From contig CAWIQR010000012.1 of NCBI GenBank assembly GCA_963838365.1, positions 119,072 through 183,071 on the forward strand: a DNA stretch of 64,000 bases, written 5' to 3'. Shown piece by piece: positions 55,016-63,999 of the stretch; positions within the stretch are counted from its first letter, which is position 1; each line of letters opens with the position of its first letter. Source of the stretch: an uncultured Alphaproteobacteria bacterium. Its GTDB lineage: Bacteria; Pseudomonadota; Alphaproteobacteria; Sphingomonadales; Sphingomonadaceae. A program made the position numbers and the translations under genes. The notes beneath the pieces were generated by a model. It searched no databases. It was not told the DNA's origin and was given only the letters and a program-made list of their open reading frames with translations.

Positions 55016-55480
55016 ATGGCCCGTATCCTGATCGCCGACGACGATGAACTGATCGCCGAAATTGCAACTGAAGTCCTGATCGACGCAGGCCATGCCTGCG
55101 GCTGGGTTACCAGCGGAGAAGACGCGTGGGAACTCGCCCATAGACGCCGGCCCGATATCCTGCTGCTTGATCAGGGTCTGCCGGGTATTTCAGGGGTGAG
55201 CCTGCTGCGCAAATTTCGCGGCAGCCCGCAATTTTACGATCTTCCGGTCATCATGTTTACTGCAATGCGCGGCGAGGAGGATGAGGCGCAGGCATTGTAT
55301 GCAGGCGCACAAGATTACATCCGCAAACCGTTTGAGCCAGGGATTCTTACCGCGCGGATTGCACGGGTGCTGGCAAAACGAGGTGATCGGCCAGGCCACA
55401 CCGATCTGATCACGCGTACGTTGGAGGATGCGGGATTGCTGAGCGAGGCGATCGAGCCGCGCGAATTCCGCATGATCTGA
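55016..55480 (+). CDS. Single-domain response regulator
   Basis: ILIADDD, LLLDQGLPGISG, IMFTA and GAQDYIRKPF; RBS AGGAGG. Confidence 0.9.
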   Translation: MARILIADDDELIAEIATEVLIDAGHACGWVTSGEDAWELAHRRRPDILLLDQGLPGISGVSLLRKFRGSPQFYDLPVIMFTAMRGEEDEAQALYAGAQDYIRKPFEPGILTARIARVLAKRGDRPGHTDLITRTLEDAGLLSEAIEPREFRMI

Positions 55481-55555: not shown

Positions 55556-57085
55556 TTATTCCAGAATGTATCGCACTCGCAGCGTAATTGTCCCGCCGCT
55601 GGCAAAGGCACCGTCCGGTCGAACCCTAAAATCGGTTACCGCCGTATCGCAATCGTCGGCATCGGGTGTCGGTGTATAGCCGAAACTTGCGCCATTATTG
55701 TTGGAAAACTCCAGATCGTCTGTCGACGATGCGATCGTCGCGAACCCATAGGTCACGCCCGAATTGCCGCCGGGATCGTTGAACACGATTGGTCCGCCAC
55801 TGCGTGCGATGCGACACAACTTTACGTCGCCAGGCCCCTGATCCACCACGGACAGGCTATCGGCATCGGCCGCGCCCGGTCCGGTGTTGGACACCGTGAT
55901 AAGGTATTCAACCAGCGCACCGGGAATTGCCTTTGGGTTGGTGTTGCCATTGACGGGATCCGCGATGATCGCGCTCACCTTTGTAATCGACAGATTGGGC
56001 GTTGGTCGGCGCGTATTGGTAAAGGTGCAGACCAGCGCCTCCCCGAATTCCAGCACACCGAGATTGAAGCTGGTCGCAGCAAGATTGTTGGGTAGTGCCG
56101 CGCGCGTTGGTCCGGCGGAATTCACGCAGGTCAAAGATGAGGTGTACTGCGCCAGCCTACTGGGGCTACCCGCAGCCATCGTCTCACGCAAAGTGATCGG
56201 GAGACCCGCGGCCATGACAATCTGGCGGGTCGAGAACGGCCCGTTGCCGCTGCCGGTGGTGGTGCCGCTGGTGATGACGCTGCCATTGCCGGTCGAAAGA
56301 ATTTCAAACCGGAACTGGTCAGCGGAATTGACGCGCGGGCCGGTGATCGTCTTCTGCAACCGGATCGAGGCAAACCGCACTGCGAACATCACCCCCTGAA
56401 GTCCGCCTGCCACGGTCTCAACCGTCACAGTAGTCGGGCTGCTTGTGCTGAGGATATGCGCGCCGACAGTCCCCGTTATCCCGGTTATCGACGCATTGCG
56501 CGTGCCAACACCGGCAAGTGTGGGAAATCTGTTACCACTGGTGGGCGGCACGCTGTCCAGCAGCTGCCAGTTTCCTCCATTGGTGCCCATCCTCAGCGTT
56601 TCGCCCTGGTTGCTCGATTCTGCATCGGCGACGATGAACGCAAAGACCGAAGCACTCGCACCGGCGGGCGGGACGATAGTGATCCCGGAAAGTGTAATTG
56701 TGCGCGTACCGGCTGACGCAGTGTAGAGGGCTGGTCGACCGGGAATGCCGATAAATGAGGAGTTTCCGATCGCCGCTCCAGTCCATGATGGCGCGGTGAC
56801 GCTGTTATAGGCCGTTCCCGTGCCGCCGGTTACGCGCGCGTTGAACGAAACGATCGAGCCATCCGGCAATGTGAAGCTGAGGTTCTGACCCGATGCCGAC
56901 CGTGCGGTGGCATCGTTGTAATTGGCAAGGTTCAGCCAGCAATAGGTCTGCCAGCTTGGCGGTGCGCTACCCTGCGTCGCCGCCTGCCCACAATCCTGCG
57001 CCTGCGCCGCATTGGACCATATCAACCCGAACATCATCAGCGCGGTTGCGATCAGCCTGCGCAGGGACCGATTTGTAAGCATCAA
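55556..57085 (-). CDS. Exported adhesin-like protein: CshA-like N-terminal domain, SpaA/prealbumin-like domain, C-terminal DUF11 domain
   Basis: Signal peptide (AQAQ); WQTYCWLNLANYND N-domain; RLQKT...LRET...CTFTN domain; NLSITK...PGALVEYLITVSNTGP...VVD DUF11 pattern. Confidence 0.75.
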   Translation of the reverse strand: MMLTNRSLRRLIATALMMFGLIWSNAAQAQDCGQAATQGSAPPSWQTYCWLNLANYNDATARSASGQNLSFTLPDGSIVSFNARVTGGTGTAYNSVTAPSWTGAAIGNSSFIGIPGRPALYTASAGTRTITLSGITIVPPAGASASVFAFIVADAESSNQGETLRMGTNGGNWQLLDSVPPTSGNRFPTLAGVGTRNASITGITGTVGAHILSTSSPTTVTVETVAGGLQGVMFAVRFASIRLQKTITGPRVNSADQFRFEILSTGNGSVITSGTTTGSGNGPFSTRQIVMAAGLPITLRETMAAGSPSRLAQYTSSLTCVNSAGPTRAALPNNLAATSFNLGVLEFGEALVCTFTNTRRPTPNLSITKVSAIIADPVNGNTNPKAIPGALVEYLITVSNTGPGAADADSLSVVDQGPGDVKLCRIARSGGPIVFNDPGGNSGVTYGFATIASSTDDLEFSNNNGASFGYTPTPDADDCDTAVTDFRVRPDGAFASGGTITLRVRYILE

Positions 57086-57088
57086 AGT

Positions 57089-60000
57089 CTACCTTTCCAG
57101 CCCGAGGAAACTGAATGTGTCGGTGTCAAATTTGAGGCGCACCGCGGCGAAAACGCCTTTGTCGGTGTTGCGCGCGGCGGCAAAATCTCCGTCACGGAAG
57201 CCTTCGACATTATAGCCAACCGTCAACAAAATGTCCTGCGCAGGTGAGAATCCGACGGTCGGCCCATAAGCAAAGCTGGTGACCTCATCTTCCAGATTGG
57301 CTCGCACGGTGGCGCTGGCACCGATTTCAAACTTGTCGCTGATGCCAAGGCGCGCATCCAGACCCGCCAGCACTGTGGTCCCGGAAAATTCCGTGTTTCC
57401 AAACTCATCAAAGTTGTAACGCGCGCCCACGAACAGTGTGTATTCGTCGCGCCGCACCTGTTGGTCGATGCCAAATTCGTCCTCGTCCCAGCCGCGCGGG
57501 CTCCAATTGGTCGAAAGGCTGCCGACCAGACGGCGCGACGTCGCATCGCCGTCCACGATCAGCGCGGTGCGCCCTGCCCCCGTTACATCGCCCGCAACCG
57601 CGCCAGTTACCGCGTCGCTGCGAAATTCCAGCTTGCCCAGCATGGCGACTTCGCTGGCGTCGGGGCGGTGAGCAAAGGCAATGCTGGCATCGAAGATTTC
57701 AGTAACCGCACCGTTGAAGTTTTCCGCCCTCGTCCAGGTGACGCCAGATCCGGCGACGCTGCCCTCACCCAATTGACGGATGCCGCCAAAGGTGATGCCG
57801 GTGCGGTCGGCCTGTTCGCCGTCGCGGTATTCGCCTCGCGCGGTCAGGCTCCAGCGGTCCTTGCGCCATGACGCACCCAAGGTGAGAGCGGTAAAATCTT
57901 CAAACAGCAGGCCCCCGGTCAACTGACCGCCGCTGGCCGCCGGTTGCAGCGGGTTCACAAGGTCGGAAACGTCGGGCGCGCCGTTCAGGGTGCGATTGCC
58001 ATCAACCGTCGCGTCGATGGCAAACTCTGGCGTCAATTGCAGGGTCTGCGCCACACCGAATGCAGCGAAGGAACGGTTACCAAATTCGCCGATGGTTTCC
58101 TGACCCAGCGTGGTGACAATCTGACCGCCCTGCCACGGCGTCAATTCGACCCCGCCACGCAGCTGACGCGAGTTGAAGTTTTCGCCATCGGCAATTTCAT
58201 AGGTGCCCACCAGCCGCACATCCTGTGTCAGCTGATAGCGCAGGCCAAGCCGGTGACGTGCAGGCAGATCGAGGCTTTCCGCCTGATCGAGCGCAATCGC
58301 GGTGCTGGCCGAAATTTCAAGCGCGGCGTCGAACAGCCGTTTCGTCCCGCCCGCTTCGAGCACGGTCGAGGTGTTGGTGGTGCCATCGGCAAGCTGGTCG
58401 TCGAAATGGGCAATGCCAATACGCAGATCCGTGGTCGGACGCTGCAATGTCAACTGCGCCTGTGCGGCGCGGCGGCGGCTGGCATCGGTCAGGCTGTCAT
58501 CCTGCCACACACTGCCCAGCACGCTGAGATTTTCGGTGAGCAGCACGCGGCCATCCACGCCAACCTTGCGGCGACCCTGTTCGACCGCGTTCTGTTGGCC
58601 AATTCCGTAATCGCTATCCAGCTGGCGAGCATAGGCCAGCACGTCGAGCTTGCCCGTCTGGTGCTGCGCTTCGACGATCCAGCCGGTTGCGGTGTTGCCC
58701 TCGGATTGGCTGACGCCCAGCTCCGCGCGCACTTCGGTGCCCTCGCCAATCTGTGCGCGCAGATCCAGCGCTCCGATATCAGTGCGTGCACCATCACCCT
58801 TGTCGGTGATGGCGGTTGCGCCGATACGGATATTGCCATTTGTGCTGGTCCAATCCGTGCGCAGACCTGCATTCATCTGCGCTTCGCCGGCACCATCGGT
58901 TTCGTATTCGACGATGATGAATTGCGGATTGAGGTTTTCATCGCGGCTCAGCACCGGCTGCGCAAAGCTGATCGTACCCGACAGCAGATCGAGATCAAAG
59001 TCGATGAAGCGCGTCAGCACCCGCCGCGATACGATCAATTCGGACCGGAAGCGGTCGCGCACTTCGATCGTCACCTGTTCGGTGTTCGGAATGATCCGTC
59101 GGCTGCGTAGTTGATAGGGGCCGGTGATGCCCTGGCCCTGAATTTCCTCGCGCTGAAGGCGGCTGGAAACCTCGGCGGCAAAGGCCTGCGCCTTTACCTG
59201 GCCAAAGCGCGCCTCACCTTTTACGCCCGTCGCGGTGCGGTTGTAACGCGCCAGCTGGGTCTGATCGAACGCGGTCTGGAAATCGCCATACAGCGCATAG
59301 AAAGTTGAGGTTTCGATACGCACATACAGCTTTTCACGGCTGGCCGCATCAAACCGGCGCATCGATCCATCGGCGAACACGGTGTAATACGCGTTTGGAT
59401 CAATCGCGCCCAAAACACGCTGGTCCTCGCGCTGTTTGGCGCTGTCATAGGCAAGCGTGACGAGATATTTGCCCAGCACCCGGCCCTTTGCATACAAAGC
59501 GACGCGAGCGTCCTTGCCCAGATCGCTGTCGAACCGCCCGGTGCGTTCCATATTGTCAGCCACGCTGCGCGCGCCCGCTGTGCCTTCGGCAAGGCCAACG
59601 ATGGTCCATTCGATATCGCCCGGCTCAATCCACGCTTCCAGCTCTTGCTGGCGCACAATCTGACCATCATTGAAGCTGAAATTGAGCCGCAGCGAGCCGG
59701 AAACCATCGTCGGCGCCAGTTCTATGAGCGCAATGCCGTCCTCGCCTTGCGTTACCCACCGCGCGGAACTGGCACCAAACCCGGTAAGCTGGTTCAGCTG
59801 CTGACGATCCAGCTGCTCGGCGCTTTCATAGGGGGCGTTCAGCGAAAACTCGCCCGCGATACCTTCGCGCAAGGGGCGATTGTTGCGATCGAGCACCCGT
59901 ACGGCGATGACCGGGCGCGTGCGGCCATCGGCGACGAGGTTGGAGAGTTCCGGCACCAGTTCGACCTTGGTCGGGGCAGTGGTGAAGAATACTTCGCGTG

Positions 60001-62299
60001 AGATCGTCTGATTGACCACGCCAAACGAATTGATGATGTCTGCTTCGAGCAGCGTGCGCTCATTCACCAGCGGCACGCCGCGCCAAAGGCTGACGGCAAA
60101 GCGTTCGGAGGAGTTCTGCGTGCCGTCAAAGGCCAGCTGATCGACCGGCTTGCCATTCACGCGCAGGGCAATCGTCTGCCCCTTGCGATGACGGATCGCG
60201 ACCTTGATGGCGGGCGCGCGCGGATTGGCATCGACGCTGGGCGAAAGCCAGCCGTCCGGACCATCGCCCTGCGCCAACCAGTCTGCATCGGCTGCGGGGG
60301 CGCTTACAATCGGAGCCAATGCGGTGGCGCTCGCGGTCACGGAACCCTGCGCCACCGGCAAATCTCCATTGGCCAGTTCGCTTCCCTCGGCGATATCGTC
60401 GATTGCACGAGCAATTCCACCATCGGGAGTGGTTTCGGCCTTCTCGGCGATCTCGTTCAGCCAGCCTTCGGGCACGGTTGCATGAAAATCGGCGACAACC
60501 AGGCTTCCACCCTGCCCGATGACAAAGCGCGAGCTGACGCTGCCCGCATTGCGAGTGCTGCGGTGGCAGTCAATCAACTCGGCCCCTTCGGGCAGGGTCA
60601 TGCGCGAAACGGCGACCACGTGTGTTCCGGGCACTACGCCCTCGAAATGATAGCGGCCATCGGCATCGGTGATTGCAAAACTGCCGTCTTCCATGATCAC
60701 GCGCACGCCGGGGATGCCGGGGCGTGGATCGTCGATGGAGCATGCACCGGCGGTGATACGCCCGATCACGGTCATCCGGTCGGCGATTGTCTCGCGAACA
60801 ATGTCGACCGGCACATTGGCGCGCGCGGTGCGGCCCAGCAGATCGGTCACGACCGCTTCATTCACGGCGCGACCCGGAGGCGCATCGGGACGCACGGTCA
60901 TTGCATAGGTCACCCGCGCGCTCACACCACCTGCCAGCGTGCCTACATTCACTTCAAATCGGCTACCATCAGGCGCAATCGTAATCGCTTCCGGCACGGC
61001 AACGCCGTTCACGCGAATTGTGTCGGGTCGCAGGCGAAGCCAGCGCGATGGCGTGTCGGCGATTGTCACATCGCGTTTGGCGCGGGCCGGATCGGAATTG
61101 CGCGCGGTAACCGAATAGAACACCACATCGCCGGGCACCGCCTGAGCGCGCGAGGCGGTCTTGGTCAGGCCAAGGTCCAATCCCGAGCGGTCCAGCGGAA
61201 TATCGATCTGCACGGGGATCGGATCGGTCAGCGCAAATGCCGCGCCATACGAACCCTCCCGAATGACGAACGCGCGGCCATCGGGGCGTGCTATCTGCGC
61301 GATCTGGCCGGGTTGGACCACGGATGGCGCGGAATAGGGATCGGGCGGGGTAATTTCCAACCGGTACTGCCCCAGCAGAGTGAGTGGGAACCAGAATTCG
61401 CCCACCCCCAGATCGGTCACTCGGCCAGCGCCATCGGTTACAGACGCGCCCGAAAGTACGCTGGAAGGCCAAGGCGTTACACCATCTTCGGCAAAGACGG
61501 TCGCGGGCTGACCGGTCACTGCGTTAACCAGGGTCACGCGCGCGCCATTTATCGGTTCTCCGGTTTCGCTGTCGAACACCACTCCGAACGGATCGGCCAG
61601 CACTTCCACCGAGGTTTGCGCGATAATCGCGGTCGATCCCGGCAGTGATGCGGCGACGGTGATGGAAGCACCATCAATGATGCTGAGGCGGCAATCGTCC
61701 TGCACAGGCGCTGGCGGAATGCGCGCAGTGTCAATCTGGCCGACGAAGAGCCCCGTGTTCAGTCCCGTTTCAAAAATCGTTTCGGTCTCACGGTCCCCGG
61801 TCGAGGTGGTGATAACCACTTCAAGTTGATCAATGGCATTCCGATCAATGTTCGCGGCGGGCGCTTGGACCTCGAAAATCAGGGTCTGGCCTGCACGCAA
61901 CGTGCTGGTCTGCTGCACCGTCAAATTCAATGGCTGAGTATCGGGTTTGGCCTGCCCGCTGGGCGCAGGGCCGGTGCTCTGACCGGGCCGCCCGATACCA
62001 TTGCAGACTGGAGCGCGAAAACTCAGCTGCGTGCCGCTTTGCGAAACCGGCCGAAAAGCGCGGATTTCCGGGGGCGGCACCGTAACATCGAAGGTTACTT
62101 CGTTCGAAGTCGTGTTAACTGCGCGCCCAGCGAAATCCCACCGCGCTGTTGCAGTGTTGGTCACGGTTCTGATGGTCTGCCGGGCTTCTTGCCCAGTGGT
62201 ATTGTCTTGTGCGCGCGCCTCCCCTCCGGACACGCCAAAAGGCAGCAGCACTAACGCTAATGCTGCTGCCAGACGGCCCAGAGGGGAGTTTACACGCAA
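57089..62299 (-). CDS. Very large exported protein with Ig-like/DUF11/SdrD-B-like domains and a predicted C-terminal outer-membrane beta-barrel
   Basis: 1736 aa; signal peptide; LGLTKTAS...PGDVVFYSVTARN DUF11; PGIPGVRV...ITDADGRYHF; long C-terminal region of alternating amphipathic strands ending VRLKFDTDTFSFLGLER. Confidence 0.78.
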   Translation of the reverse strand: MRVNSPLGRLAAALALVLLPFGVSGGEARAQDNTTGQEARQTIRTVTNTATARWDFAGRAVNTTSNEVTFDVTVPPPEIRAFRPVSQSGTQLSFRAPVCNGIGRPGQSTGPAPSGQAKPDTQPLNLTVQQTSTLRAGQTLIFEVQAPAANIDRNAIDQLEVVITTSTGDRETETIFETGLNTGLFVGQIDTARIPPAPVQDDCRLSIIDGASITVAASLPGSTAIIAQTSVEVLADPFGVVFDSETGEPINGARVTLVNAVTGQPATVFAEDGVTPWPSSVLSGASVTDGAGRVTDLGVGEFWFPLTLLGQYRLEITPPDPYSAPSVVQPGQIAQIARPDGRAFVIREGSYGAAFALTDPIPVQIDIPLDRSGLDLGLTKTASRAQAVPGDVVFYSVTARNSDPARAKRDVTIADTPSRWLRLRPDTIRVNGVAVPEAITIAPDGSRFEVNVGTLAGGVSARVTYAMTVRPDAPPGRAVNEAVVTDLLGRTARANVPVDIVRETIADRMTVIGRITAGACSIDDPRPGIPGVRVIMEDGSFAITDADGRYHFEGVVPGTHVVAVSRMTLPEGAELIDCHRSTRNAGSVSSRFVIGQGGSLVVADFHATVPEGWLNEIAEKAETTPDGGIARAIDDIAEGSELANGDLPVAQGSVTASATALAPIVSAPAADADWLAQGDGPDGWLSPSVDANPRAPAIKVAIRHRKGQTIALRVNGKPVDQLAFDGTQNSSERFAVSLWRGVPLVNERTLLEADIINSFGVVNQTISREVFFTTAPTKVELVPELSNLVADGRTRPVIAVRVLDRNNRPLREGIAGEFSLNAPYESAEQLDRQQLNQLTGFGASSARWVTQGEDGIALIELAPTMVSGSLRLNFSFNDGQIVRQQELEAWIEPGDIEWTIVGLAEGTAGARSVADNMERTGRFDSDLGKDARVALYAKGRVLGKYLVTLAYDSAKQREDQRVLGAIDPNAYYTVFADGSMRRFDAASREKLYVRIETSTFYALYGDFQTAFDQTQLARYNRTATGVKGEARFGQVKAQAFAAEVSSRLQREEIQGQGITGPYQLRSRRIIPNTEQVTIEVRDRFRSELIVSRRVLTRFIDFDLDLLSGTISFAQPVLSRDENLNPQFIIVEYETDGAGEAQMNAGLRTDWTSTNGNIRIGATAITDKGDGARTDIGALDLRAQIGEGTEVRAELGVSQSEGNTATGWIVEAQHQTGKLDVLAYARQLDSDYGIGQQNAVEQGRRKVGVDGRVLLTENLSVLGSVWQDDSLTDASRRRAAQAQLTLQRPTTDLRIGIAHFDDQLADGTTNTSTVLEAGGTKRLFDAALEISASTAIALDQAESLDLPARHRLGLRYQLTQDVRLVGTYEIADGENFNSRQLRGGVELTPWQGGQIVTTLGQETIGEFGNRSFAAFGVAQTLQLTPEFAIDATVDGNRTLNGAPDVSDLVNPLQPAASGGQLTGGLLFEDFTALTLGASWRKDRWSLTARGEYRDGEQADRTGITFGGIRQLGEGSVAGSGVTWTRAENFNGAVTEIFDASIAFAHRPDASEVAMLGKLEFRSDAVTGAVAGDVTGAGRTALIVDGDATSRRLVGSLSTNWSPRGWDEDEFGIDQQVRRDEYTLFVGARYNFDEFGNTEFSGTTVLAGLDARLGISDKFEIGASATVRANLEDEVTSFAYGPTVGFSPAQDILLTVGYNVEGFRDGDFAAARNTDKGVFAAVRLKFDTDTFSFLGLER

Positions 62300-62321
62300 A
62301 GTCGTTGCCTATCCGTCAGTC

Positions 62322-63416
62322 TTACGGTGTCGGCGTGCCCGACACGACGGCCGGGATTGTGACTTCAAAGCTGAGACCGGACGAACTGCCGCCCGATACC
62401 GTGCTGAGAGTGCCGGTGACACGGTTGTTGCCGCTGTCAAAGCTGCCCTCGGTGGCATTGGTCGGAGCCGCACCACCAGTGCAGGTTGCATCGGTCCCGC
62501 TGATTGCGACCGCCGTGTTGCGCAGGATCGTGCCGGTGTTGAAGGTCACGTCGCTGGGCAGATCATCGACCACGCTGATGTTGGTCGCGTCCGCACCACC
62601 CGAAGCGTTAGACACCGCGATGCAGTAACGGATCACCGCGCCCGGAATTGCTTTCGGGTTGCTGGTGCCGTTGACCGGATCGCTGACGATGAGGCTGGAT
62701 TTGAGCACGCTCACTTCCGCGCCATCGACGTTGAGCGTACCCGATGCCGAGAACGCACCGTCATTGGCAGCATCGCCGGCAAGCCCGCTCGAACCATCTG
62801 CCAGAGCGGTATCGACGACCGACTGATCGGCAGAATCGCCTGCGCTTTCAGTCAGTTCTGCACCAAGTCCAGCTGCACCCGCTGCATGGGCGTTGGCATT
62901 CAGGATGACATCGAAGCTGTCACCGTTGATCGCTGCCAGTTCGACGTTAGCCACTACAAAGACGCGGCGAGTTTCATCCGCAGCAACTTCGTCGAGGAAG
63001 GTTACAACCTGTTCGGTGCCGTCAAACGTGCCGTTGCCGTTCGCTTCATCGACATATATCGTGAAGCCGGAGATGTTGCCAGCGGTGCCAGCCGCCAGGG
63101 TGGCGGTGAGGTCAAGATCGACCGTGTCGTTGGACAGGTTGGTTACATCGAAGCTGAGGAAGGCGTCCTGTTCACCCGGATTTACATCCTTGGGCGAGTC
63201 CACTGCCGAAACCGTCACGTTGACGCGGCGGTCAACGGCGAAGGTATCGGTGGCGATTATCGGGGCCTGCACATCGCCGCCGACCGAGTAGGTCACTTCG
63301 ACGGTGTTGGTGATGTCCGTGCCAGCGCGGATTCCTTCCGCCATGGCCGGGGCGCTGGACATGACAACAAGCGCAGCCGCGCTTACCGCCCCCAGCAATT
63401 GGGTCGTTCGTTTCAT
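62322..63416 (-). CDS. Exported DUF11 domain protein, candidate major fibre subunit
   Basis: RBS AAGGA, signal peptide (APAMA), N-terminal GTDITNTVEVTY, VDEANGNGTFD Ca-binding-like loop, C-terminal VLKS...PGAVIRYCIAVSN...VVDDLP. Confidence 0.8.
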   Translation of the reverse strand: MKRTTQLLGAVSAAALVVMSSAPAMAEGIRAGTDITNTVEVTYSVGGDVQAPIIATDTFAVDRRVNVTVSAVDSPKDVNPGEQDAFLSFDVTNLSNDTVDLDLTATLAAGTAGNISGFTIYVDEANGNGTFDGTEQVVTFLDEVAADETRRVFVVANVELAAINGDSFDVILNANAHAAGAAGLGAELTESAGDSADQSVVDTALADGSSGLAGDAANDGAFSASGTLNVDGAEVSVLKSSLIVSDPVNGTSNPKAIPGAVIRYCIAVSNASGGADATNISVVDDLPSDVTFNTGTILRNTAVAISGTDATCTGGAAPTNATEGSFDSGNNRVTGTLSTVSGGSSSGLSFEVTIPAVVSGTPTP

Positions 63417-63486
63417 TTCTCTGGTCCTTTGCGTGTGCCGCGCGTCAATCATTCCGCCCGCACGGCTTGGCGGTCATCTCCGCAAG

Positions 63487-63999
63487 TCAGCGAATGATCA
63501 CGGGAAAGCCGATCCGGCCGCTTTCGCCCGGCGCGATGGATGCAATCGTCCAGCGGACATGCGTCACATCGGCGTGCGTGGCCGCGCGGGTGGCGCCTGA
63601 TTCTGTGGCTACGACAAGGGTGTCCAGCGTGCCGAAACTCTCGGCGCCATCGACGGAGACGATCAGCGCAGGATCGGCATCGGGCGCTAGGCGCACCGAT
63701 TTGTTCAGCGGGCTGGTACCGGTTACATTGGTCGCGGCCTCGGCCCCTTCGTTGGCGTAGATCATGCCGAAACTCAGTTTGGTGCCGGGCGTGTATTCGG
63801 TGGCTGTCGCCAACTCGCTCGTTTCTTTGCCGGTTGCATCGGTGGTTGTGACAAGAGCCTTCACATCGCTTTTCAGGCTGACTTTGGGCGCAGCGTCTCC
63901 ACTAGCCGATGCCAGCGGCGTCTCGTCCTGAGCTGAGGCAGGAGCAGCAAGCAGGGCCATCACGATTAACGCAGCGGCAATGTTTTTCCATTTGTTCAA
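63487..63999 (-). CDS. Exported single DUF11-like domain protein
   Basis: Signal peptide (ASAQ); PGTKLSFGMIYANEGAEAATNV...VSVDG...VTHVRWT...PGESGRIGF. TTG at the window edge, so the true start may lie outside. Confidence 0.7.
   Translation of the reverse strand: MNKWKNIAAALIVMALLAAPASAQDETPLASASGDAAPKVSLKSDVKALVTTTDATGKETSELATATEYTPGTKLSFGMIYANEGAEAATNVTGTSPLNKSVRLAPDADPALIVSVDGAESFGTLDTLVVATESGATRAATHADVTHVRWTIASIAPGESGRIGFPVIIR

Follow-up and report, generated by a model that had tools for sequence, protein, structure and literature searches.

The DUF11 domain, renamed CLIPPER in 2025 (Costa et al. 2025, PMC12617251), is a CnaA-like immunoglobulin (Ig) fold of fibrillar adhesins. In its crystal structure 9IFR, an intramolecular isopeptide bond joins Lys715 to Asn806 across the first and penultimate strands, with Asp748 as the catalyst (PMC12617251); split CLIPPER domains and intermolecular bonds are not discussed in that paper. 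Here we analyse a 64,000-nucleotide (nt) stretch of DNA from an Erythrobacter-like bacterium (G000:C12:119072-183071; hereafter the window, to which all coordinates refer), which holds four genes of a five-gene operon. The products of this operon divide a CLIPPER domain between separate polypeptides, and we propose that they may build a surface fibre whose joints lock themselves by isopeptide bonds.

SpyTag/SpyCatcher, SnoopTag/SnoopCatcher and isopeptag are man-made splits of CnaB-type (or Spy0128) domains, in which tag and catcher ligate spontaneously. An autocatalytic, intermolecular and sortase-independent isopeptide bond has been described for BsaA, a TasA-family protein of Clostridium perfringens, where a mechanism of 'donor strand exchange and lock', supported by mutants, pairs N35 of the donor with K74 and E56 of the acceptor (PMC11580942). 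An October 2026 review of the bacterial surface covers only chaperone-usher pili, type IV pili, curli and the sortase pili of monoderms, and describes covalent isopeptide cross-linking only for sortases. Full-text literature searching found no published description of a system such as the one reported here.

Results

A CLIPPER domain divided between the proteins of one operon

The genes are arranged in the order subunit 2, small protein, subunit 1, large protein, adhesin. The last four lie closely packed on the minus strand of the window, and each encodes a protein with a Sec-type signal peptide; all coordinates below are on the minus strand unless marked (+). Subunit 1 (364 amino acids (aa) from MKRTTQLL; 62322..63416), the adhesin (509 aa; 55556..57085) and the small secreted protein (170 aa; 63487..63999) each end in a DUF11/CLIPPER domain that lacks the last two strands, which we term an acceptor. 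The subunit 1 acceptor spans residues 231-364 (62325..62726) and ends after strand F (LSFEVTIP), while that of the adhesin spans residues 360-509 (55559..56008) and runs to TITLRVRYILE at the stop codon. The small protein, an open reading frame with a weak DUF11 match, ends likewise at its stop codon with IGFPVIIR. Measured against the Pfam DUF11 profile (PF01345; length 114, gathering cut-off 24.6 bits), the acceptors alone cover only positions 9-75 (subunit), 10-56 (adhesin) and 8-51 (small protein). The large protein (1736 aa; 57089..62299) is the only one with a complete CLIPPER fold in a single chain, in an internal domain (residues 375-486; 60842..61177) that matches profile positions 1-98 at 32.9-38.7 bits.

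The acceptors of subunit 1 and the adhesin carry two residues of the isopeptide triad. In subunit 1 these are K239 of VSVLK (62700-62702) and D284 of VVDD (62565-62567), and in the adhesin K369 of LSITK (55979-55981) and D415 of VVDQ (55841-55843), the last of which sits 17 nt below position 55860, where an earlier sequence-only reading of this DNA had placed the start of the feature. The acceptor Lys belongs to the first strand, just upstream of the aligned profile block. The missing Asn is found on hairpins that directly follow the signal peptides of subunit 1 and the large protein. In subunit 1 the donor hairpin comprises residues 32-60 (GTDITNTVEVTY...IIATDTFA; 63237..63323), with N37 of the motif ITNT at 63306-63308; in the large protein it comprises residues 43-75 (IRTVTNTATARWDF...; 62075..62173), with N48 of VTNT at 62156-62158. 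All motifs quoted in the sequence-only reading are present on the minus strand, each confirmed codon by codon, and the internal DUF11 domain of the large protein does hold Lys, Asp and Asn in cis, as it had stated (K380, D415 and N480; equivalents invariant in 18 large-protein homologs).

Appending a donor improves the profile match of each acceptor. Joined to its own donor, the subunit acceptor covers DUF11 positions 9-98, ending where the intact internal domain ends, and its score rises from 25.2 to 28.3 bits, compared with 23.1 bits when the donor is shuffled; within the full-length protein the acceptor scores 20.3 bits, under the cut-off. The adhesin acceptor scores 18.0 bits alone (under the cut-off), 22.5 with the subunit donor and 17.0 with a shuffled donor, and the small-protein acceptor moves from 17.0 bits alone, again under the cut-off, to 24.6 bits with a donor. 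When 22 chimeras, each an acceptor followed by its own donor, were compared profile to profile with intact domains from large-protein homologs (18 sequences), the probability was 96.7% (E 4.6e-10). The alignment continues unbroken from strand F into the donor, pairing the two Asp residues with each other and the Asn of the donor with that of the cis triad, and the Lys/Asp/Asn triad is complete only when acceptor and donor are combined.

Natural gene fusions rebuild the same domain. In the tandem-fused subunits P0124, P0388 and P0389, a linker of 9 residues, as long as that of the intact domain, separates acceptor 1 (…RTIRFSVTV) from donor 2 (IANTGSVAY…). The fused region covers positions 14-123 of the 123-position DUF7933 profile with the donor and 14-93 without it. 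The fusion fills the subunit slot of an operon with an adhesin, subunit 2, small protein and large protein, and it connects an acceptor with the next module's donor, as expected for a head-to-tail arrangement in a fibre.

The donor hairpin is thus equivalent to the last two strands missing from the acceptors, and a natural split of the domain, with Lys and the catalytic Asp on acceptors and Asn on the N-terminal donors of other chains, is strongly supported. The sequence-only reading had proposed such a split, and its assignment of residues stands on the conservation described below and the selective loss of these residues from the small protein, the profile alignment, the fusion and the proteins that hold one half only; its picture of the donor as a single last strand does not, since the donor is a two-strand hairpin. 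It had also assigned the domains to the CnaB fold, with a bond between first and last strands. This applies only to the SpaA_3 domain of the adhesin, and not to DUF11: CLIPPER is CnaA-like, with Asp as the catalyst and a bond between the first and penultimate strands, and a donor is accordingly expected to be a hairpin of the last two strands.

Conservation and covariation bear out the hairpin. Across 147 representatives of the subunit family, conservation in the donor alternates at I35/N37/V39/V41/Y43, which indicates that the Asn lies on the buried face of its strand. Mean-field direct coupling analysis (DCA) of 417 subunit sequences (effective number, Neff, 275) recovers the register of the donor hairpin (42-52, 34-60 and 44-49) together with the intradomain sheets. 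An N-glycosylation sequon was rejected as the reason for conservation of the Asn, because N-T-V and N-T-A are not N-x-S/T. Similarly, K255 of the NPKAIPG insert was considered as the reactive Lys and discarded, because subunit 2 has no counterpart of it and the K239 position is universal.

The fused subunits are ~700 aa long and come from a high-GC metagenomic lineage. P0389 lies at L135:10001-12103. The large protein of this operon has 1999 aa and also contains an OmpA peptidoglycan-binding domain.

Conservation of the divided residues across relatives

We surveyed 80 sphingomonad loci from named genomes and scored residues in about 70 operons. Gene order is kept in ~65/80 of these loci, from genera including Erythrobacter, Qipengyuania, Porphyrobacter, Novosphingobium, Sphingopyxis and Sphingomonas, and also in distant lineages. 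Acceptor Lys and Asp are both present in 69/72 copies of subunit 1, 68/69 of subunit 2 and 53/53 adhesins, and the donor Asn in 71/72, 65/69 and 71/73 copies of subunit 1, subunit 2 and the large protein, respectively. The adhesin has no donor hairpin (motif in 0/53 homologs), and the large protein has a complete internal domain only. The small protein departs from both patterns: the donor is absent (0/70), no Lys occurs within 2 residues of the Lys column in 63/70, and Asn replaces Asp in 70/70. Pooled over the ~70 operons, subunit and adhesin acceptors have both Lys and Asp in 190/194 cases and donors have Asn in 207/214.

The wider families agree with this pattern, which greatly exceeds what chance would produce. 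Among the 147 subunit representatives, which share 33-59% identity, N37 is found in 141, K239 in 140 and D284 in 145, and all three rank among the most conserved columns of the family; conservation of these residues was a point that the sequence-only reading had set as a test of itself. Lys and Asp are present in 13/13 adhesins when distant ones are included. The large-protein donor motif with Asn is found in 112/120 listed homologs; seven of the eight that the pattern missed lack the N-terminus, and the other, P0359, retains the Asn. In distant loci the large-protein donor Asn is present in 15/20, and the division of residues between proteins recurs in these lineages. Overall, the system occurs in 47/401 sampled genomes of the phylum, with more than 574 relatives among representative genomes. 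Large-protein homologs with 56-72% identity were also seen in metagenome-assembled genomes labelled Marinomonas, Woeseia and Synechococcus (L069, L096, L101, L114), reflecting either contamination of the bins with sphingomonad contigs or recent transfer.

This distribution bears on where the partners of each residue lie. The adhesin, which has only an acceptor, keeps Lys and Asp, and the large protein, which has only a donor, keeps Asn; for both, partners are available only in trans. Were the hairpin to pack on the acceptor at the C-terminal end of the chain it belongs to, in the manner of a circular permutation, an intramolecular bond and closed monomers would result instead. In the AlphaFold2 (AF2) monomer of subunit 1, the hairpin has a predicted local distance difference test (pLDDT) score of 88-91 and the overall predicted template modelling (pTM) score is 0.77, so that in the model the hairpin is packed against something, and FimA can adopt an alternative, self-complemented monomeric fold (PMC6615685). 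Such closure is nonetheless highly improbable for this family: adhesin acceptors retain Lys and Asp in every case yet have no donor to close upon, the only CLIPPER domain of the large protein is complete and leaves its Asn donor no truncated acceptor, the donor motif is common to three different proteins of one operon, and in the tandem fusion it is the next module's donor, and not its own, that follows acceptor 1.

Several observations weigh against a fibre of covalently completed split domains. The gain in Pfam score on adding a donor is small, at only 3-8 bits. DCA couplings between donor and acceptor are at noise level, with best values of 0.68 for strand A and 0.71 for strand B, compared with 0.85-1.9 for true contacts. 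Asn is replaced by Ser in 4/147 subunits and Lys by Arg in 5/147, with the partner residue in the same protein kept, and Ser occupies the donor of 4/20 distant large proteins.

The small score gains and the noise-level covariation would also fit a reading in which the truncated domains are self-sufficient Ig variants and the N-terminal motif is a recognition or targeting signal for secretion through a pore formed by the barrel of the large protein; the motif does lie at the mature N-terminus of proteins that need to cross the outer membrane. We consider this very unlikely. The adhesin and the small protein also need export and have no motif, while the barrel protein itself bears one. The profile alignment moreover runs continuously from acceptor to donor with Asn on Asn, and the fusion rebuilds a canonical domain with the native linker length.

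The substitutions speak for a different alternative, in which donors complete acceptors in trans and form a fibre, as in chaperone-usher pili or TasA, and the triad residues are conserved because they pack or form hydrogen bonds. Members with Asn to Ser or Lys to Arg changes that retain the partner residue, and the Ser donors of distant large proteins, are compatible with this, and BsaA N35A oligomers withstand sodium dodecyl sulphate (SDS) as long as they are not heated, which shows that a fibre can be held together by complementation alone. A wholly non-covalent fibre is unlikely, however, as the triad falls at the positions of a crystallographically proven CLIPPER isopeptide and stands among the most conserved columns of a family with 33-59% identity. 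Furthermore, the small protein, which serves as a built-in negative control, shares the truncated fold and consistently drops Lys and Asp, which is hard to explain if these residues are merely structural. Some joints may still be non-covalent, given the few members with an Asn to Ser or Lys to Arg change. Absence of the donor Asn from a protein does not go together with absence of the acceptor Lys; this co-loss check is uninformative, as each operon holds several donors and acceptors.

The large proteins with Ser donors (L047, L049, L050, L054) belong to one low-GC lineage. Lys and Asp are retained on the subunit acceptors encoded in their operons, and in this lineage the joint to the anchor may be non-covalent. 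These operons adjoin a gene pair for a histidine kinase and a LuxR-type response regulator.

Subunits and adhesin

Subunit 1 homologs have 343-402 aa and begin MK(R/T)TTQLL; an upstream ATG at 63452 would give an alternative start and a protein of 376 aa. Between donor and acceptor lies a middle Ig-like domain (residues 63-230; 62727..63230), defined by AF2 secondary structure and intradomain covariation, from which the isopeptide triad is absent. The AF2 model of subunit 1 (pLDDT 90.2) has residues 345-353 as its final strand. Foldseek with this model returned only generic tandem Ig matches (integrin legs, AgI/II C-terminal domains, PrgB, SafDAA-dsc and CfaE/B), and when the PDB was searched by sequence, neither the subunit nor the intact domain nor the chimera profile gave a meaningful match or retrieved 9IFR. 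In Pfam searches, subunit 1 and the small protein gave partial, weak DUF11 matches, and NCBIfam returned sub-threshold matches to the RrgB isopeptide domain. Two cysteines of the subunit 1 acceptor, Cys265 (62622-62624) and Cys312 (62481-62483), are invariant in 77 aligned homologs and probably form a periplasmic disulfide.

Subunit 2 (326 aa) is encoded by the first gene of the operon, which lies past the end of the window (window numbering 64029-65009, -; L004:9101-10081) and is a paralog of subunit 1 with 36% identity. It carries its own donor hairpin (GTLIENTATATY), Lys (in VALVKS) and Asp (in VVSDAIP), and is conserved in ~70/80 related loci. The insert DPVNGxxNPKAIPGA, common to the acceptors of subunit 1 and the adhesin, is absent from that of subunit 2. 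This difference suggests that acceptors come in two types and that their order in the fibre is defined.

The adhesin consists of a signal peptide, a CshA_NR2 domain (residues 47-235), a SpaA_3 domain (240-359) and the acceptor; in Pfam it matches CshA_NR2 (6.2e-16), SpaA_3 (5.3e-36) and then a partial DUF11. Its CnaB-like SpaA_3 domain (PF20674; 56009..56368) scores 123.7 bits over profile positions 1-121 of 121. The triad that the sequence-only reading had placed in cis in this middle domain was recovered as K245, E301 and N357, kept in 12/13 homologs. These residues lie at +5, +61 and -2 of the domain, which matches the positions of the published example (Lys298/Glu353/Asn409 in domain 293-411).

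Adhesin heads are modular. Relatives of 217-1117 aa (L035-L134) carry P-domain (PF01483) and GEVED (PF20009) modules in place of the CshA_NR2 and SpaA_3 combination seen here, and every one has the same truncated acceptor at its end, Lys and Asp included. Some genomes have the adhesin gene upstream of the operon.

The small protein

The small protein is an acceptor-type truncated CLIPPER domain with neither a donor hairpin nor the catalytic Asp. The copy in the window has K43 beside the aligned Lys column and Ser in the Asp position, and Lys occupies the aligned column in 0/21 distant homologs. No other partner accompanies the large protein as constantly as the small protein does, yet a conserved Lys is never found in it. 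Judged by these features, the small protein is probably a reversible binder of donor hairpins, acting as a periplasmic cap or chaperone; a candidate alternative role is that of an adhesin-less tip.

The large protein, and searches for known pilus machinery

The large protein comprises a signal peptide, the donor hairpin, an Ig-like stalk and a giant C-terminal beta-barrel. Its start is a TTG at 62299, which yields a normal signal peptide (MRVNSPLGRLAAALALVLLPFGVSGGEARA, followed by QD). Public gene calls give a protein of 1720 aa (P0268) that begins 16 codons downstream and loses most of the signal peptide. Pfam detects DUF11, DUF7927 and CarboxypepD_reg in the large protein.

AF2 modelling of residues 640-1736 from 54 aligned sequences (pLDDT 80.2, pTM 0.75) produced two Ig-like domains followed by a predicted outer-membrane beta-barrel at approximately residues 882-1724 (57128..59656), with at least 32 long antiparallel strands. 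No Pfam family was found to cover the barrel region. In Foldseek the barrel matched only large outer-membrane barrels at low template modelling (TM) scores: Deinococcus SlpA, LptD, SprA of the type IX secretion system (T9SS), TonB-dependent receptors and FimD. The likeness to FimD is generic (TM 0.17-0.27, E ~5e-5). With at least 32 and possibly ~40 strands, the barrel would rank among the largest single-chain outer-membrane barrels.

Sortase (PF04203), usher (PF00577) and PapD-like chaperone (PF00345) were not found in the genome from which the window derives, while control genomes matched each profile; the absence of sortase from the scheme put forward in the sequence-only reading is thereby upheld. 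The proteins also have no LPXTG motif or hydrophobic sorting tail, and end straight after the final strand. A TasA/camelysin-type Pfam match was not obtained for any of the four window proteins.

Neighbouring genes

A divergently transcribed DEAD-box helicase gene lies upstream of subunit 2. At the other end, a gene for a single-domain response regulator (55016-55480, +) converges on the operon. This gene was considered as part of the system and set aside as probably unrelated, because its synteny is kept in only 17/80 related loci, mostly close relatives.

Discussion

We favour, with moderate confidence, a reading in which this operon would build a surface fibre by trans-complementation of a split CLIPPER isopeptide domain, each joint being locked by a Lys-Asn bond. 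From the arrangement of domains and residues we infer insertion in trans, a covalent bond, an order of assembly, a route of export and a role for the small protein, which may fit together as follows. The donor hairpin of protein i+1 would insert into the acceptor of protein i and complete its CLIPPER domain. Insertion would set Asn beside Lys and Asp, and a Lys-Asn isopeptide bond would then form autocatalytically with loss of NH3. The polarity of the fibre would follow from which halves each protein carries, with the adhesin at the distal tip (acceptor only), then n subunits, and the large protein last (donor only), so that the chain would stop once the large-protein donor inserts. The barrel would anchor the fibre in the outer membrane and probably serve as its conduit, while the small protein would probably cap donors reversibly.

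A broader proposal, which we put forward tentatively as a real possibility, is that these operons could define a class of pilus in double-membraned bacteria, not described before, that is free of chaperone, PF00577 usher, sortase and ATP. Subunits would polymerise through the division of the CLIPPER domain between successive chains, with joints that lock themselves by a spontaneous Lys-Asn bond. The covalent end of the fibre would sit on the N-terminus of the large protein, whose barrel of at least 32 strands would act as both pore and anchor, and assembly would be driven by donor exchange from a reversible complex with the small protein to a covalent one with an irreversible acceptor.

If correct, the implications are considerable. 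A new assembly principle would be added to the short list of Gram-negative pilus classes, and the intramolecular isopeptide domains surveyed in 2025 (PMC12617251) would be seen to act between chains in nature as well. A large family whose members are now annotated only as 'DUF11 domain-containing' or 'hypothetical' would gain an explanation. The operons would also offer natural, related tag/catcher pairs, with three donor types and at least two acceptor types in each, together with a natural non-ligating acceptor.

The proposed system can be compared with several that have been described, of which BsaA is the nearest in mechanism, CLIPPER the nearest in domain and chaperone-usher pili the nearest in layout. 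The acceptors and donors belong to the same domain family as published CLIPPER domains, and the internal one in the large protein is unexceptional, its triad being in cis. Published CLIPPER bonds, however, are internal to a chain and occur in the tandem repeats of individual giant proteins, whereas here two polypeptides contribute the residues, and the bond would link one chain to another. With BsaA the system shares an N-terminal donor Asn and a Lys with an acidic catalyst on the acceptor of another chain, which in our case is a distribution of residues read from sequences. The BsaA fold is nevertheless unrelated (TasA/camelysin-like, with a Glu catalyst), and BsaA donates one strand only and comes from a monoderm, with no outer-membrane component. 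Archaeal threads (Saci_0406; PMC9715654) likewise combine donor-strand complementation with a proposed spontaneous intermolecular isopeptide bond in a sortase-free filament, but their fold is also unrelated, and they are archaeal and have no outer membrane. A text match to 'DUF11' in the Tafi paper arose only through 'DUF1102', and this paper was set aside as an analogy and not a relative.

Engineered tag/catcher pairs differ in that the split here is natural, occurs in a CnaA-like domain and involves the donation of two strands. SpyTag/SpyCatcher is a CnaB domain split in two, relies on Lys-Asp and Glu, and is analogous to the system here but unrelated to it. Sortase-assembled Gram-positive pili resemble the proposed fibre in their Cna-type pilin domains and covalent linkage, and the adhesin carries the CshA_NR2 and SpaA_3 domains typical of Gram-positive adhesins, but the host in this case is a diderm with no sortase in its genome, and its proteins have no LPXTG motif. 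In layout, the operon recalls the chaperone-usher pili (Fim, Pap, Csu/CupE), which similarly combine a donor-less two-domain tip adhesin, subunits with both donor and acceptor and a large outer-membrane barrel at the base, all encoded in one operon. It differs from them in having no PapD or PF00577 usher, a far larger barrel that itself bears a donor, a two-strand donor and a predicted covalent lock. Overall, our analysis points to donor-strand complementation of the self-locking kind, here in a fold and a cellular setting that are both new, with a covalent lock predicted at its joints.

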